From a candidate division WOR-3 bacterium (GTDB lineage: Bacteria > SDB-A), in the NCBI GenBank assembly GCA_016934535.1, contig JAFGSQ010000010.1:1-64000 (forward strand): a stretch of DNA of 64,000 bases, in the 5' to 3' direction. Positions 1-3,860 of this stretch are shown one piece after another; position 1 is the stretch's first letter, and each line of letters opens with the position of its first letter. Under the pieces are notes generated by a model that made no database searches, had not been told where the DNA came from, and saw only the letters and a program-made list of their open reading frames with translations. The position numbers were made by a program, and so were the translations under genes.

Positions 1-1278
1 CTTATCGGAGTGCTTCTTACCCTGATAGCAGTCGCCGGTTACGCGACCCAGTCAAGGATCAGTGTCCTCAACATGGCAGGATACATGTCGGACATTATGT
101 CTTGTTGGTCGAACCCCGGCTACATGGTCGTTCATCACAATGAAATAGGAAAAGACGCCGTCGGAATGGAATTCGGCTTTGACAACCCGACCAACAACGG
201 CGACATGGACAGGTGGGGTTATCTCCATTACGGCAATGCCAATCAGTATCTCGGCATAGCCGTCAACCGCCCGGCCACTTTCCGCGGTTTGTTCGATTTC
301 CAGAACAACCTTCCAGCGGGCATGACCTGGACTCCCGCCGGTTTGATGGCAGGAACCGAAGACTACGTCAATGACACGCTTCAGGTTCCCAACAACATTC
401 TCGACGTAATCTGGTCGAAGAACTGGGGCCCGAAAGCCGGTCTCGGAATAAACCTCAATTTCGGTTACTGGGGATATTCGACGACAGCTCCCAACTGGGA
501 ACCCACTCTTAATTCTATGAAGATAGGATTACTCCTCGGCTACTACACCATGCCCATGGACGTAACAGTCGGATTCGACATGCTCACTTCGAGCGCTGAA
601 ATCAAAGCTATAGCAGGCGCAGTGACAACGACCGACAAATTCGACAATTCGAACATGGCAGTCAACCTCGGCTTCAAGTACAAAATGTATCCCAACCAGA
701 CGACGAAAGTAATTCTTCCCTTGGTTGGCTTAAGCTACGAAACCGGAAACGGCGAATACGATCCCAACGGAGTGGACTGGAATCCCACACTCAAATATAC
801 TGATCTGTCATTCGTTCTTGGAACAGGAATAGTATGGTCAGGAGCCACCTGGCAGGCCGGACTCGCAGCCGAACTCGGTTACGAAACAGGCAAACTCACA
901 AAAGAAAACGACGTCTCCAACAACAACGACCAGGAAGGCACGATGAACACCATCACCTTCCCCAGGGTTAAAGCCGGTGCGGAATCACAGGTTTTCTCAT
1001 GGCTGACTGCAAGAGCCGGAATGACCTATCAGCTCAACATGGTCACCGAGAAACTGACTACGACAGCCGCCGGAGCCAGCGTTGAAAACGAAAGAAAGAC
1101 CCAGTTCGGCAAGAACATGAACGTTCAGGTCGGCCTCGGCGTCCATTTCGGACCAAACTTCACGATAGACACCGAAGTAAGTGAAGACCTTCTTTACAAC
1201 GGTCCCTATCTCATCTCCGGCGCCAACAACGGCACCGATCCGATGAATCTTTGCGTATCAGCGGTTTATCACTTCTGA
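1..1278 (+). CDS. Outer-membrane beta-barrel protein (porin-like), 5' end outside window
   Basis: Frame is open from base 1 (LIGVLLTLIAVAGYA, signal-peptide-like). Alternating Gly/aromatic beta-strand pattern, C-terminal beta-signal AVYHF, strong terminator downstream. Confidence 0.75.
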   Translation, partial: LIGVLLTLIAVAGYATQSRISVLNMAGYMSDIMSCWSNPGYMVVHHNEIGKDAVGMEFGFDNPTNNGDMDRWGYLHYGNANQYLGIAVNRPATFRGLFDFQNNLPAGMTWTPAGLMAGTEDYVNDTLQVPNNILDVIWSKNWGPKAGLGINLNFGYWGYSTTAPNWEPTLNSMKIGLLLGYYTMPMDVTVGFDMLTSSAEIKAIAGAVTTTDKFDNSNMAVNLGFKYKMYPNQTTKVILPLVGLSYETGNGEYDPNGVDWNPTLKYTDLSFVLGTGIVWSGATWQAGLAAELGYETGKLTKENDVSNNNDQEGTMNTITFPRVKAGAESQVFSWLTARAGMTYQLNMVTEKLTTTAAGASVENERKTQFGKNMNVQVGLGVHFGPNFTIDTEVSEDLLYNGPYLISGANNGTDPMNLCVSAVYHF

Positions 1279-1329: not shown

Positions 1330-1381
1330 ATTCTAATCAATTGTTCCTTAGCTTATACAATTTTTCTTCACCGACTCCGTG

Positions 1382-1407
1382 AGGATGAATTGTATTCAAT
1401 TCATCCT
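1382..1407. repeat. Palindrome AGGATGAATTG-tatt-CAATTCATCCT, duplicated at 1626-1651
   Basis: Identical 26-nt hairpin present twice in the same intergenic region. Confidence 0.9.
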
Positions 1408-1469
1408 TCGTTTTCTCAGTGGCGGATATTTATTCGTTATTATAATTTGTTAAAACAAATACAGTTTCT

Positions 1470-1688
1470 ACCACGAAGCAGAGACATGCTGAATTACATT
1501 CAGCATGTCTCTTACACGAAGGTCTGCTTATTTGCACATAACAAATAATCAGACTACACGAAGTATAAAATTTGAAATACAAATTTTATAAAGAATAATT
1601 TGTTTGTTTTACCTTCACTTCGTGAAGGATGAATTGTATTCAATTCATCCTTCGTGTAGAAAAAATGTACTCATTTTTCCTTCGTGGT
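1470..1688. repeat. Nested inverted-repeat, multi-hairpin element (3x CACGAAG ... 3x CTTCGTG); candidate structured RNA or non-autonomous mobile element
   Basis: Pairings 1470-1478/1680-1688, 1513-1522/1649-1658 and 1557-1564/1617-1624. Hairpins at 1480-1512, 1522-1554, 1564-1590, 1626-1651 and 1659-1679. Confidence 0.75.
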
Positions 1689-1746
1689 TGATATTCTTTC
1701 TTATCTTTTCTTTTATTCTTAACTAAATCTTCGTGCTATCGGTTAA

Positions 1747-3411
1747 TCAGGCTTTCCTGTTTCTCACCTTTTCTTTTATCCTCTGGATGTGACCTCTTCC
1801 CATGCCCTTGACTTCGCATCCGAGTTCAAAAAGTTTTTCAATTTTATCGTCTGAAAGAATTCCGAAGCAGTCGACTACTGCGATAGAGCCATCTGCCATC
1901 GAAATTATCTTTTCCGCTTCAAGCTTCAGATACGGTTCGTGCGGCACCGCGAGGACTACGGCGTCTGCTTGTTTCAAGGCTTTCTCGAGATCTTTTTCAA
2001 CCACGACATTTTTCAGTTCTTCCTGGTTCCTGAAAAAATGCTTTCTCGAGCTTTCGGGCGACGGATAAACGTCCTGTTCCTCCAGTTCGTACCAGTGCGC
2101 GACGTAAGGATCGTGTACACGGACGTCAGCACCCATCTCCGCGAGTTTTCTCGCTATGAGTTCGCTTCCGCTGTATCTCGTATCACCGACATCCTGCCTG
2201 TAGCTTGCGCCGCATATGACGACTGTAGAACCGGCAATATATTTTCCCATGTTCCTCAAAGCGTCTCTGGCCAGTTGAGCGGCGTGCAAACCTCTCGTGT
2301 CGTTTATATCAATAGACGCTGGAGTGATTCTGAACAGGTCGTCTCCATCGTCGAATCCAAGTATGTGCCTGTACGCCCAGTATCCTAGCCCTCCGTCTTT
2401 CGGAAGACAGTATCCGCCTATGCCCGGTCCAGGAAAAATTATGTTGCTGTGTGTCGGCCTCATCTTAATTGCTTTGATGACTTTAATAAGGTCCACTCCG
2501 TTTCTTTCCGCGAAAACGCTCCATTCGTTTATGAAAGCGAGTATTGCAGCCCTGTATGAATTCTCGACTATCTTAGTAGTCTCTGATTCGATCGGCCTGT
2601 CCATCACCGTCAGAGGGAATTCCTTTGTGTTGAGGACTTCGTTGAGAAATTTCACAACTCTCTCTTTCGCCTCTTCGTCGCAACCTGCGCACACTCTCCA
2701 GAAATCGCGAATGCTTCTTACATATTCTCTTCCCGGCATCACTCTTTCGAAACTGTGCGACAGCAAAGGCTTTCCTTTCAAGTTTCTCTTGAGGAAAGCT
2801 TTTTTTAGAATGGGATATGCGACAAATTCAGTCGTCCCGGGGGCGACGGTAGTCTCTATTAGAACCAGACACTTTTCCTGTATTTTTTCGCCGATTATTC
2901 TTATCGTTTCTTCCAGGGCTCTCATGTCAGTTTCACCGGTTCTCATGTCGCCTAGGTCTCTTTTTACAAAATCGCACTGTACATCGACGATGACGCAGTC
3001 TGCAAGCTTGAGGCAGTCGTTGTTGTAGGTCGCAACTAAGTTTTTACGCTCGATGACGCATCTTTTTATCAGTTCTTCTACTTCCGGATCTTCAGCCTTG
3101 ACAGGAGATTCTCCCCTGTTCAAAAGATGAATCTTCCACAAGCTTCTCGCGCTGGGTCTCTGACATCCAATTACGAATTTACCGGGTTCCCCTTTATCAT
3201 TCGCGGAGTCGGCGACTATTGCCGCCATTACTGCTCCAACAAATCCGACCCCCATGACCACGACTATTTCTTTTCCTTCGTCCCGGGCTTTTTTTGAGAG
3301 GGCTTCAATTTTGTCATATTCCTTGTCGTATTCTTCCTTTTTAGGAAGAGGGAATTTCTCGCCTTGCGGGCTTTCCGAGTATAATTCGCATTCGGGGGTA
3401 ATCTTTTTCAT
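1747..3411 (-). CDS. Nucleotide-sugar dehydrogenase (UDP-glucose/GDP-mannose/UDP-HexNAc dehydrogenase family)
   Basis: Rossmann GVGFVG, ETTVAPGTT, ERVMPG, KIVENSYR, catalytic GIGGYCLPKD, C-terminal SYRQDVGDTRYS; SD GGAGG. Confidence 0.92.
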   Translation of the reverse strand: MKKITPECELYSESPQGEKFPLPKKEEYDKEYDKIEALSKKARDEGKEIVVVMGVGFVGAVMAAIVADSANDKGEPGKFVIGCQRPSARSLWKIHLLNRGESPVKAEDPEVEELIKRCVIERKNLVATYNNDCLKLADCVIVDVQCDFVKRDLGDMRTGETDMRALEETIRIIGEKIQEKCLVLIETTVAPGTTEFVAYPILKKAFLKRNLKGKPLLSHSFERVMPGREYVRSIRDFWRVCAGCDEEAKERVVKFLNEVLNTKEFPLTVMDRPIESETTKIVENSYRAAILAFINEWSVFAERNGVDLIKVIKAIKMRPTHSNIIFPGPGIGGYCLPKDGGLGYWAYRHILGFDDGDDLFRITPASIDINDTRGLHAAQLARDALRNMGKYIAGSTVVICGASYRQDVGDTRYSGSELIARKLAEMGADVRVHDPYVAHWYELEEQDVYPSPESSRKHFFRNQEELKNVVVEKDLEKALKQADAVVLAVPHEPYLKLEAEKIISMADGSIAVVDCFGILSDDKIEKLFELGCEVKGMGRGHIQRIKEKVRNRKA

Positions 3412-3452: not shown

Positions 3453-3860
3453 TCAGTTCTTTTTTGCGAAAAGTTCTTTCACCGGTTCCCGGGTCAAAAC
3501 TATTATTGAAAAAACACCCAGGACAGTTCCGTAAGGCACCATGATGCATAACAAGCAGGCTATCGCCAGACAGTAATGATAACGGGTGGTTTTTCTCAGA
3601 TTCTTTCCGGCTAAAAAAATCAACAGAGCCAAAGTCCATCCGACGAGCACCACAATTCCACCTACGATAATGAATATTACTCCGACCATTGCGGGAGGGG
3701 CTTCACTCTGCTCGTCGAATGCGCCATGAGCGCCGGCAATGAGCAGGATAATTCCTATTGTGATGTGTATGAGAGGAAAACATGAGACCAGCGCAGTGAA
3801 TCCGCTCATTATGAAATGAAACAGAGACAGAGTCTTCAAGTTATTGAGTTCTTCCTGCAT
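3453..3860 (-). CDS. Small integral membrane protein (about 3-4 TM)
   Basis: Hydrophobic segments; SD GAAGGAGG upstream; co-oriented in operon. Confidence 0.75.
   Translation of the reverse strand: MQEELNNLKTLSLFHFIMSGFTALVSCFPLIHITIGIILLIAGAHGAFDEQSEAPPAMVGVIFIIVGGIVVLVGWTLALLIFLAGKNLRKTTRYHYCLAIACLLCIMVPYGTVLGVFSIIVLTREPVKELFAKKN

Follow-up and report, generated by a model that had tools for sequence, protein, structure and literature searches.

The closest described relatives of the element reported here are the ORF-bearing intervening sequences (IVS) of 23S rRNA genes and the REP/REPIN elements. The IVS in the 23S rRNA of Coxiella burnetii has three tandem GACAGAT heptamers, whose number differs between strains, and cutting by RNase III has been shown for IVS; according to the same source, the origin of the rRNA IVS has been open since about 1990 and their mobility is unexplained (PMC4990558). 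The described tagged REP families carry either a GTAG or a CGTC tag and comprise many stem subfamilies with complementary changes (PMC3733652). REPs, REPINs and rRNA IVS are common in bacteria, and for most of them the mode of spread is unexplained.

The element lies in a 64,000-nt stretch of DNA (the window), to which coordinates refer, on the plus strand unless stated otherwise; G000 denotes the window's own genome. It sits between two convergent genes, for a porin-like protein and a nucleotide-sugar dehydrogenase, and is built from two inverted arms with three CACGAAG words each, ..AC / GT.. bounds and a short centre. An exact-word scan placed CACGAAG on the plus strand at 1472, 1515 and 1557 and on the minus strand at 1618, 1650, 1680 and 1729; seven of the 16 matches in the whole window are thus packed within 264 nt. 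The features of the region are as follows.

10–1278, plus strand: gene for a porin-like outer-membrane protein (weak PopA-family match, 34.5 bits, below cut-off)
1293–1328, no strand: two-way terminator hairpin that serves both convergent genes (16-bp perfect arms, 4-nt loop, A-run and T-run flanks)
1375–1412, minus strand: decayed arm fragment, with degenerate heads CTCCGTG (1375–1381) and CTTCGTT (1406–1412) around a copy of hairpin D
1413–1471, no strand: linker and outer boundary of the left arm, with ...TTTCTAC directly before the first head
1472–1563, plus strand: left arm, with CACGAAG heads at 1472–1478, 1515–1521 and 1557–1563, palindromes A and B between them and TA after each
1480–1512, plus strand: palindrome A, stem 1480–1494/1498–1512, 15 bp, perfect
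1522–1554, plus strand: palindrome B, stem 1522–1534/1542–1554, 13 nt at 92%
1564–1590, plus strand: palindrome C, TATAAAATTTG / CAAATTTTATA, stem 1564–1574/1580–1590, 11 bp; the innermost hairpin of left arms
1591–1617, no strand: central spacer, the place of the cargo in relatives
1618–1686, minus strand: right arm, with heads (CTTCGTG on the plus strand) at 1618–1624, 1650–1656 and 1680–1686 and palindromes D and E
1624–1653, minus strand: palindrome D, stem 1624–1636/1641–1653, 13 bp, perfect
1659–1679, minus strand: palindrome E, 7 pairs in the predicted RNA fold
1687–1735, minus strand: right outer boundary GTTGATATTC, T-rich linker and fourth head (1729–1735)
1747–3411, minus strand: nucleotide-sugar dehydrogenase gene, 554 aa (TIGR03026, 202 bits, above cut-off)

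An earlier note on this DNA had described three nested CACGAAG/CTTCGTG pairs at 1470–1688, and all of their coordinates hold. In the outermost pair ACCACGAAG (1470–1478) is complementary to CTTCGTGGT (1680–1688), in the middle pair TACACGAAGG (1513–1522) to CCTTCGTGTA (1649–1658), and in the innermost pair CACGAAGT (1557–1564) to ACTTCGTG (1617–1624). The words recur with periods of 43 and 42 nt in the left arm, as had been noticed together with the palindromic nature of the spacers, and with periods of 32 and 30 nt in the right arm. The five hairpins of the note are all present, with the correction that the stem at 1624–1653 has 13 bp instead of 11; 1659–1679 forms 7 pairs in the predicted fold. 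The centre (1564–1617) is free of ORFs and the only ORFs that overlap the element are mechanical ones of 40–52 aa, in agreement with the note, which had also rightly placed the element 3′ of the dehydrogenase gene with its stop at 1747.

The element is bigger than first noted, since it has a fourth CTTCGTG at 1729–1735 and the decayed arm at 1375–1412. It extends over about 1375–1735, with a core at 1464–1696, and its right end is 12 nt short of the dehydrogenase stop codon. The hairpin of the decayed arm (1382–1411, stem 1382–1392/1397–1407) is identical to 1626–1655 at 30 of 30 positions, and the sequence at 1411–1435 is 72% like the right-arm boundary at 1676–1700. The outer boundaries read TCTAC-CACGAAG (1467–1478) and CTTCGTG-GTTGA (1680–1691). 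Similar parts are seen at other loci of the genome: the ATTTCTAC/ATTTTTAC boundary also stands ahead of left arms on contigs C29, C50, C66 and C71, and a hairpin of the palindrome C type follows the last left head on C17, C29, C50, C66, C70, C71 and C76 as well as in sister species. A GT(T/G)GATAT(C/T) boundary with a linker of ≈50 nt also joins successive units on C29 and in the sister genome G001 (contig C53).

The terminator hairpin at 1293–1328 is outside the element and bounds the transcribed space. It was not listed by a simple terminator scan, probably as its stem takes up the T-run. The dehydrogenase mRNA would enter the element before it reaches the terminator (1328–1293), and the element would in that case be transcribed.

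The window element belongs to a family of dispersed repeats and is not a one-off RNA. In the 2.2-Mb genome, 59 of the 265 exact CACGAAG words fall into 17 clusters with at least two words, compared to two clusters for the reversed control word, and 11 clusters have at least three words. A stem of at least 8 bp follows the word in 31 of the 265 cases, while the corresponding number is 0–1 for five control words. The exact three-word pattern was found in all four genomes of the genus and, among 37 further genomes, in neither of two other genera of the family and in none of 35 distant genomes.

The unit in the genus is a 7-nt word followed at once by a palindrome of variable sequence, 2 nt and the next word. 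Modules from G000 and sister loci that were chosen for being palindromic (94, of which 79 are distinct and 35 are from G000) have the hairpin starting 0 nt past the word in 65 cases and the next word 2 nt past the hairpin in 50 of the 64 with a following word, and they contain 67 different 5′ arms; in 28 short-stem modules, chosen in the same way, 98% of the cells pair compared to 54% with shuffled 3′ arms. The test of word-defined intervals, which alone is free of this circularity, revealed spanning palindromes with at most one mismatch for 22 of 28 intervals in G000 (shuffled mean 0.74) and for 35 of 43 in sister loci (shuffled mean 1.17). The palindromes are always directly 3′ of a word in the modules compared, and arrays of the same words that lack palindromes exist as well. 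The spacings between words group around 10, ≈31 and ≈42 nt, and spacings of 27, 30, 32, 33, 34, 37, 38 and 41 nt also occur.

Modules are found in spacers at all loci examined, and of ten loci with an ORF on both sides seven are tandem, three convergent and none divergent. No common neighbour gene was found at dozens of loci; four unannotated proteins of ≈540 aa beside elements were considered as a recurrent neighbour, and proved not to be paralogues. The copies differ by 10–25%, half-elements occur alone and the number of modules differs between copies. The orthologous site in sister species has other or fewer modules (G001 and G002) or falls on a contig break (G003). On contig C76 of G000, positions 3556–3579 represent two neighbouring hairpins fused into one; both are intact in G003 at what appears, from the shared flanking genes, to be the same site.

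Arrays are found at 10 of 152 contig ends compared to 0.4% of random windows. Identical stretches of 70–87 nt occur at three contig ends, which could also result from assembly-graph overlap. In contigs from the sequencing runs the depth over the repeat is up to ≈1490, compared to ≈10 in the flanks (X1), and contigs break there; no joint across this element was found in the contigs of four runs, and no RNA run is among those listed with the stretch. The gcvP–uvrB spacer has an insertion in G000 only, and neither clean insertion ends nor a target-site duplication was found at this locus.

Searches elsewhere were made with both sequence and pattern. The region 1464–1740 gave no match to plasmids and phages in the distant mode of blastn. 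Three CACGAAG words with gaps of 22–36 were found at 120 or more loci in genome contigs, with at most one hairpin-followed word each among the matches listed, and these were rejected as hairpin arrays in favour of chance or coding repeats. A 23-base pattern gave at least 119 loci in metagenome contigs, of which the sole filter-passing match listed is a GC-rich coding repeat by eye. Neither of the two pattern scans bears on how widely the element is distributed.

The earlier note had also suggested an empty site of the inverted repeats that flank cassette genes such as GxxExxY, and relatives with cargo bear this out. In G001 (C53) a 123-aa PDDEXK_3/GxxExxY gene is located between the last left and the first right head of hairpin-bearing arms, and in G002 (C126) a gene pair (119 and 70 aa) occupies the central loop. 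Elements in the genus also bracket other small accessory genes, such as toxin–antitoxin and Fic genes. A PDDEXK_3 gene was found only in G001, where there is a single one, and in none of G000, G002 and G003; as assembled, three of the four genomes thus lack a helper in trans.

In unrelated bacteria PDDEXK_3 genes are found between inverted arrays of three 7-mers, without palindromes and with the words 8–10 nt apart. In the canonical cassette layout a PD-(D/E)XK gene of roughly 120 aa is enclosed by arrays of a 7-nt word in inverted orientation. Among 22 PDDEXK_3 loci from 16 genomes, at least 19 have 7-mer arrays on one or both sides, and the consensus word of the 22 loci is CRCNRAK, which CACGAAG fits. 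The two arms agree at 354 of 378 word positions, where the words were picked by a motif, and at 26 of 58 linker positions. One of these genomes, G055, has CACGAAG itself as its word (45 word pairs, control 0) and numerous copies that lack an ORF, among them elements with centres of 46–95 nt. The ..AC / GT.. outer boundary is likewise seen in G055, G041, G046 and others.

In the protein tree the G001 nuclease, with its hairpin arms, is sister to the G055 nuclease (support 89/85). The word type tracks this tree and not the host (5 changes compared to a shuffled mean of 10.3; 0 of 200 shuffles reach 5), which is expected from linked inheritance alone and does not imply recognition. Several word types occur within one genome and travel with the cassette. 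Genomes with PDDEXK_3 have a median of 25 triple-heptamer arrays and those without a median of 0 (Mann–Whitney p 7e-7), a difference that genome size and the nuclease cassettes' own arrays may exaggerate; the top counts, 253 and 208, stand beside three nuclease gene matches each.

The 22 sequences compared share the nuclease motif D67..E77-x-K79 as well as E27 and Y30 of GxxExxY, and the predicted model (pLDDT 95.5) has a PD-(D/E)XK fold. The sequence had no significant match among solved structures. Fold searches with the model returned the generic PD-(D/E)XK fold, with a best Z of 7.8 and a Z of 6.4 for the Holliday-junction resolvase Hjc, and no PD-(D/E)XK subfamily stands out.

The nested repeats implied a tree-like fold, and the minimum-energy folds do recover the nested 7-mer helices (7–9 bp between junctions) with the hairpins as branches. 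The predicted energies are −91.8 kcal/mol for the plus strand as RNA (z −12.9), −92.3 for the minus strand as RNA (z −13.3) and −63.9 for the plus strand as DNA (z −13.3), with 0 of 200 shuffles as stable in each case. Such stability could point to a dedicated structured RNA, either an sRNA or a 3′ UTR element, for which the tree fold with its two four-way junctions is the selected unit. Consistent with this are the position, which probably falls in the 3′ tail of the dehydrogenase mRNA ahead of the terminator that both genes share, and the stem pairing kept through double changes; homologues and compensatory changes are both plentiful. However, the two strands fold with equal strength, and so does the sequence as DNA; the stem mismatches on the word strand (5 G:T and 9 A:C in a wobble-pair strand test) show no RNA bias for either strand. 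As half-elements stand alone and the numbers of modules per arm vary, what is conserved is not the tree fold, and the orthologous spacer differs in G001 and G002, where the full nested architecture is absent. Rfam gave 64 weak matches, the best on the terminator at 1293–1328, and none at the gathering threshold; rRNA families had no match in 1200–1850. The chance of a dedicated RNA is thus very slim, and the suggestion of a single structured ncRNA with the tree as its functional unit is not supported. The words might instead be read in double-stranded DNA, as phased iteron-, centromere- or regulator-like sites for a protein such as one with a DnaA-type helix-turn-helix, for which the end of a Y1 protein of the genome is a candidate (weak Bac_DnaA_C match, 21 bits, below cut-off). 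The main spacings are close to 1, 3 and 4 helical turns and the words are far better conserved than the linkers, but the spacings scatter, dozens of loci lie by unrelated genes, several word types coexist per genome with their cassettes and the palindromic DNA between the words is left unexplained, which makes such an array highly unlikely.

A REP/RAYT system, in which a single-copy Y1 (HUH) transposase moves tagged palindromes as single-stranded DNA and inserts them 3′ of CACGAAG, would account for the position of the palindromes directly after a word, with the heptamer arrays merely as target-rich landing pads. The unpaired tag with a stem-loop and the stem subfamilies with complementary changes resemble those described for tagged REPs (PMC3733652), and the orientation of the flanking genes is REP-like. 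G000 also encodes a 308-aa Y1_Tnp protein (48 bits, above cut-off), which scores 54.8 bits against the model for REP-associated tyrosine transposases (sub-threshold, 80), and a second Y1 paralogue. Yet modules are beside none of eight Y1 gene loci in six genomes of the family, and G004 and G005, both without CACGAAG-palindrome arrays, have Y1 genes too. The tag of 7 nt is neither GTAG nor CGTC, words are arrayed without palindromes, and the head-to-tail arrays that dominate here are absent or rare in the described families (PMC3733652); we regard such a system as unlikely. The copies could also be inert debris, that is, decayed old cassette insertions tolerated in spacers with no present mobility or role. 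The lack of a nuclease gene in three of four species as assembled, the divergence between copies and the degenerate words and fused hairpins are what would be expected of debris. The palindromes are nevertheless near-perfect despite their wide sequence divergence, and selection or ongoing renewal is therefore needed; the identical stretches at contig ends, if not due to graph overlap, and the excess of arrays at contig ends also speak against debris, which we find quite unlikely.

Our preferred reading, to which we give a probability of roughly 60%, is that the element in the window is a non-autonomous member, without an ORF, of a class of palindromic elements with heptamer arms, a class that is probably selfish DNA. 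It shares with the class the CRCNRAK-type inverted arms, the ..AC / GT.. boundaries and the short ORF-less centre, but its words are 30–43 nt apart as opposed to 8–10 nt in canonical arms. We infer that the usual spacing of 9 nt is restored only with the palindromes folded out (0 nt and 2 nt around them). The recognised unit would then be the 7-mer and not a continuous duplex, and the active form would be single-stranded, DNA or RNA, in which folding out returns the words to the 9-nt spacing and the two arms can pair. Copies may spread, lose and swap modules via breakage and recombination at words and hairpin loops, with the cassette-borne PD-(D/E)XK nuclease as the most likely helper, in trans. 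The nuclease gene was not found in this genome, and its copies may therefore now be stranded. As RNA, the window copy would belong to the 3′ untranslated region of the dehydrogenase mRNA, where at most it might stabilise the transcript in a REP-like manner or provide a processing site of the RNase III type; helices of seven base pairs that junctions interrupt are a poor RNase III substrate.

The palindrome-interleaved, REP-like form of the heptamer-armed element is new here. The locus shows that an element of the heptamer-armed build can lose the gene it carries and proliferate within a single genus into a REP-like mosaic, and that palindromes can pull the 7-mers 30–43 nt apart with no loss of the word, of the inverted arms or of the 0-nt and 2-nt junctions. 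The spaced-apart words give a testable prediction on the form in which they are read, and the cassette link names the GxxExxY nuclease as a candidate enzyme. More tentatively, heptamer-armed elements might be a prokaryote-wide counterpart of the REPIN–RAYT system, in which a few-copy GxxExxY nuclease maintains tens to hundreds of ORF-less elements via a 7-nt word and the rRNA IVS are the special case that landed in rRNA; this is possible but doubtful. If true, the palindrome-interleaved arms of the genus would be a natural experiment and the words would be read in single-stranded, folded, branched or junction-like nucleic acid, because only folding restores the spacing. The repeats also break metagenome assemblies and could serve as genus markers.

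In the literature outside subscription journals, we found no description of heptamer-armed elements outside rRNA. Searches gave no relevant paper among those listed for CACGAAG with palindromic repeats and none on repeats at GxxExxY genes, and for PDDEXK_3, four-helix-bundle proteins and IVS they returned a superfamily catalogue and IVS papers alone. The terms "PDDEXK", "inverted repeat" and "palindrom" are absent from a paper on insertions in CPR rRNA genes.

The element resembles the rRNA IVS in its small size, in terminal inverted repeats that enclose either a small ORF or none, and in the tandem heptamers of its arms, which vary in number; the GACAGAT given for C. burnetii (PMC4990558) is near the CACAGAT and CGCAGAT words found here. 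Of 26 genes of the IVS protein family PF05635, ≈8 have inverted tandem-repeat arms by eye and two by a strict script. Unlike the IVS, the window element is intergenic, between the porin-like and dehydrogenase genes and not in an rRNA helix, and it has no ORF; the cargo of CRCNRAK arms is a PD-(D/E)XK nuclease and not a four-helix-bundle protein. The arms are broken by palindromes and are therefore predicted to form no continuous 28-bp stem.

With tagged REPs, BIMEs and the REPIN–RAYT system, as described (PMC3733652), the family shares short palindromes outside genes that bear a conserved, unpaired tag on one side, a palindromic unit of 20–40 nt in many extragenic copies and stem subfamilies with complementary changes. 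Clusters and mosaics with inverted partners, sites downstream of genes, restriction to a genus and many non-coding copies beside few nuclease-type genes are further similarities. Compared to the same account, the family differs in its longer CACGAAG tag, in head-to-tail arrays as the rule and in the variety of palindromes among the modules of a single array. The repeats do not flank the Y1_Tnp loci as in a REPtron, and the associated gene elsewhere is PDDEXK_3 and not an HUH Y1 enzyme.

Two other kinds of array were compared and rejected. Integron attC sites have an inverse core RYYYAAC and a core GTTRRRY around one imperfect palindrome and are arrayed beside an IntI integrase gene; here the words on either side of a palindrome are repeated in direct orientation within an arm and match neither core site, and the two tyrosine recombinase genes of G000 (C4:14838 and C50:51219) are not beside arrays. 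CRISPR arrays have constant repeats of 23–50 nt and unique, non-palindromic spacers, whereas here only a 7-nt unit is constant, what varies is palindromic and the array orientation reverses.

MITEs are short non-coding derivatives with inverted ends that outnumber their gene-bearing parent, and the elements are like them in all of these respects. They differ from MITEs in that the parent has no transposase of a known family, no target-site duplication was found at the gcvP–uvrB locus and the ends are arrays of short words and not a single long inverted repeat. From the canonical GxxExxY cassettes the window copy differs in being empty and in having its words split by palindromes, and its family in having multiplied into a REP-like mosaic, in a genus where the arms bracket other small genes as well.

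The element in the window, described in the earlier note as nested inverted repeats at 1470-1688, could be confirmed on the sequence. All five of its hairpins are real, the fourth being a perfect 13-bp stem at 1624-1653 and not the 11 bp claimed. Seven of the 16 CACGAAG matches of the 64-kb window (both strands) fall within 264 nt.

Features of the window element and its surroundings
1472, 1515 and 1557, + strand: CACGAAG word (7-mer match)
1618, 1650, 1680 and also 1729, - strand: CACGAAG word (7-mer match)
1480-1512: hairpin, 15 bp perfect
1522-1554: hairpin, 12/13 bp
1564-1590: hairpin, 11 bp
1624-1653: hairpin, 13 bp perfect
1659-1679: hairpin, about 7 pairs
1293-1328: hairpin with core GGGCGGAAG, perfect 16 bp, with an A-run on one side and a T-run on the other, located between convergent genes

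The proposed nested tree is the minimum-energy fold of the element, and none of 200 shuffles was as stable, whether as + RNA, - RNA or DNA (z-scores of -12.9, -13.3 and -13.3, respectively). No Rfam family reached the threshold over the element; the top weak matches were on the hairpin at 1293-1328. This hairpin looks like a two-way intrinsic terminator, and it was missed by a simple terminator scan, probably because the T-run was counted into the stem. The repeat-bearing stretch exceeds the limits first given for it, with a decayed arm at 1375-1412, the hairpin of which matches 1626-1655 at 30/30 positions. The neighboring nucleotide-sugar dehydrogenase (1747-3411, - strand) has 554 aa, ∼140 aa beyond the TIGR03026 profile, which matches residues 50-510.

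The repeats are built from modules in the order CACGAAG, palindrome, usually TA, TT or TG, and the next CACGAAG. Intervals picked by their flanking words alone were spanning palindromes (≤1 mismatch allowed) in 22/28 cases in the window genome, G000 (window contig C18; 0.74 cases when shuffled), and in 35/43 cases in loci of the sister species (1.17 cases when shuffled). A catalogue of 94 modules (79 distinct), selected for palindromy, holds 67 different 5′ arms; in 65/94, 0 nt separate the word from its hairpin, and of the 64 modules with a next word, 50 have it 2 nt downstream of the hairpin. Six of the seven stem positions vary among 28 short-stem modules, yet 98% of the cells pair, compared to 54% with the 3′ arms shuffled. 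No RNA-strand signal was found in the stem mismatches, with five G:T vs nine A:C on the word strand.

Left arms start with ATTT(C/T)TAC-CACGAAG and end in an AT-rich hairpin (TATAAAATTTG...), and right arms, read from the outside, start with GATATC(A/C)AC-CACGAAG. As the arms in G000 occur not only paired but also in tandem strings (contig C29) and singly (C10, C33, C73, and C76), the nested tree is just one of several arrangements. The related word C(A/G)CGAA(T/A) forms palindrome-free arrays with a 10-nt period. Other palindrome families, two of them being GATTTTTGAATCGAAGATTCAAAATATC and CGGTATTATTTTGGTTACAAAATAAACCG, accompany CACGAAT/CGCGAAT words at G000:C28:17360-17650, C76:100-150, C20:24230-24340, and C14:4450-4500.

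CACGAAG is not over-represented in G000 overall (2.23 Mb, 76 contigs, 43% G+C; 265 copies vs ∼273 expected), yet its clustering is strong, with 59 copies in 17 clusters of at least two words, vs two clusters for the reversed control word, and 11 clusters have at least three. A stem of at least 8 bp follows 31/265 copies, compared to 0–1 for five scrambled words. At least two degenerate words were seen at 10/152 contig ends vs 0.4% of random 100-nt windows; the background of degenerate words is high (57 arrays vs 33 for the reversed motif), so only exact-word counts are trustworthy. The repeat family is restricted to the genus, the exact three-word pattern being present in 4/4 genus genomes, 0/2 other genera of the family and 0/35 distant genomes; the two-word pattern gave the same split among the genomes of the family. 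G000:C50 and C66 end in 87 bases that recur unchanged as the first 87 nt of contig C53 in the sister species G001 (locus L023:1-87), and the first 70 nt of G000:C70 match the same element core, while the neighboring genes show just ∼75–80% identity between the two genomes. These ends may reflect recent spread or merely shared assembly-graph ends from one sample.

The genes on either side of the G000 copies are ordinary and unrelated: gcvP/uvrB, histidine ammonia-lyase (HAL), and genes for a citrate transporter, a prismane protein and secreted proteins bearing a type-IX sorting tail. Unannotated neighbors of ∼540 aa were considered as a recurrent neighbor gene and rejected, as they are not paralogues. 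Of the 10 G000 loci with an ORF on both sides, seven are tandem, none divergent and three convergent; in one of the convergent cases the ORF, of 148 aa, is doubtful. The arrays turn over at orthologous sites. At the locus of the window element, the G002 spacer is 139 nt long and its one hairpin is enclosed by CGCGAAT/ATTCGCG words, a lone CTTCGTG is present in G001, and the G003 contig breaks here. The gcvP-uvrB spacer contains an array in G000 only; the array ends fall in words, and no clean target duplication was definable at this insertion. Between HAL and DUF498, G000 has a spacer of 250 nt and G003 one of 3.4 kb, with added genes and arrays. At G000:C76:3556-3579 a single chimeric hairpin has the 5′ arm of one type and the 3′ arm of the next, fused at the shared loop, and both hairpins are intact at the apparent counterpart in G003:C29 (L013:377-445), judged by the same flanking genes. 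Judging from these sequences, the chimera looks like a 31-nt deletion between shared TGTAAACA loops.

In the window copy, the cargo position is occupied by the C hairpin (1564-1590) and 27 nt instead of a gene. The earlier note had asked for cargo ORFs in the central loop of homologs, and relatives do carry genes in this center, between the last left and first right word. In G001:C53, a 123-aa PDDEXK_3 (GxxExxY) gene lies exactly between these words (Pfam E-value 7e-44), and in G002:C126 the center holds two genes, one nucleotidyltransferase-like (119 aa) and one of 70 aa. In G002:C12, arrays enclose an MNT/HepT pair and also a Fic gene. Elsewhere they adjoin BrnA-type antitoxin genes (G002:C48 and G003:C1), a HicA/HicB pair in G003:C13 and another Fic gene in G000:C76.

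Genes for PDDEXK_3, a small PD-(D/E)XK nuclease, were found in 16/61 sampled genomes. At least 19/22 of the loci have arrays of ∼3 CRCNRAK 7-mers on one or both sides, with words 8–10 nt apart and ..AC and GT.. outside, and most of the 12 loci whose flanks were inspected have inverted arms on both sides. The distant genome G055 (6.1 Mb) uses CACGAAG itself (45 word pairs vs 0 for the control), and its arrays include ORF-less elements with centers of 46–95 nt; this build is that of the window element without the palindromes. The build is common to the window element, the nuclease cassettes and their ORF-less copies. Triple-heptamer arrays occur in 33/61 genomes, with top counts of 253 and 208 matches (controls 0–5) and a median of 25 in PDDEXK_3 genomes vs 0 in genomes without the gene (Mann–Whitney p = 7e-7). 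At least nine arrays, a cut-off picked after the data were seen, were found in 13/16 PDDEXK_3 genomes vs 3/45 others. Left and right arms agree at 354/378 word positions (words picked by motif) and 26/58 linker positions; the word, and not merely a stem, is the part that is kept.

In a tree of 22 nucleases the word type tracks the protein and not the host, with five changes vs a shuffled mean of 10.3, a value reached in 0/200 shuffles. Two or three word types coexist in several genomes, and the G001 nuclease is sister to that of G055 (support 89/85). Since gene and arms are inherited together, the tree shows the cassette moving as a unit, not the protein reading the word. The nuclease has conserved D67, E77-x-K79 and E27/Y30 motif residues, and its model (pLDDT 95.5) shows nothing more specific than the generic PD-(D/E)XK fold, with a best Z of 7.8 and values of 7.7 for Cas4 and 6.4 for Hjc. 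At L191 (G031:C32) the 3′ end of the upstream host gene is duplicated across the cassette, on its far side, and at L194 (G059:C8) the 5′ end of the downstream host gene is duplicated likewise; this suggests tandem duplication, or insertion bringing a replacement gene end. Nuclease cassettes at L190 (G041:C66), L192 (G046:C22), and L208 (G059:C27) stand in tandem with same-word ORF-less elements, forming short strings.

We propose that the 7-mer would be the recognition unit and that the palindromes may fold out in single-stranded DNA or RNA, bringing the words back to a 9-nt spacing (7 + 0 + 2), with the GxxExxY nuclease as the putative helper. The dehydrogenase mRNA would have the window copy as its tail, since no terminator separates the stop at 1747 from the hairpin at 1328-1293. 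Against this proposal, no PDDEXK_3 gene was detected in three of the four genus species, and helices of 7 bp suit RNase III poorly as substrates.

The literature searched contained no account of elements of this kind beyond rRNA genes, the element had no match among plasmids or phages, and chance hits dominated the matches listed for two sequence-collection scans. An integron-like reading was rejected, as no integrase adjoins the arrays. The 23S rRNA intervening sequence (IVS) of Coxiella is reported as a 428-nt element; RNase III cuts its 28-bp terminal stem, and it carries three GACAGAT heptamers in tandem, variable in number among strains, while its origin is left open there (PMC4990558). 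Genes of the IVS protein family were present in 25/61 sampled genomes, with inverted tandem-repeat arms of other motifs around ∼8/26 by eye and 2/26 by a strict script. Four-helix-bundle (23S_rRNA_IVP) genes lie between inverted arms at seven loci of unrelated genomes (L220, L221, L225, L227, L230, L231, and L247), the arms being tandem 7–9-nt repeats of quite different words, e.g., TAGGCTT, GAACTGA, and AAGGTAA.

Short extragenic palindromes (REPs) were compared together with the Y1 (IS200-like) transposase genes of G000.

Y1 transposase loci in G000
L001:937-1863, - strand (G000:C43:4237-5160): Y1 transposase, 308 aa
G000:C59:9095-9577: second Y1 transposase copy

The 308-aa protein matched the REP-transposase model below the threshold, and its C-terminus weakly matched a DnaA-type helix-turn-helix. 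Y1 genes are single-copy per paralogue and occur in all six family genomes, including the two genera without these arrays, and modules flank 0/8 Y1 loci in these six genomes. The G001 orthologue has an in-frame TGA. Tagged REPs differ from the family of the window element in their GTAG or CGTC tag and in that head-to-tail arrays are rare, and share with it a tag-plus-stem-loop unit and complementary stem variants (PMC3733652).
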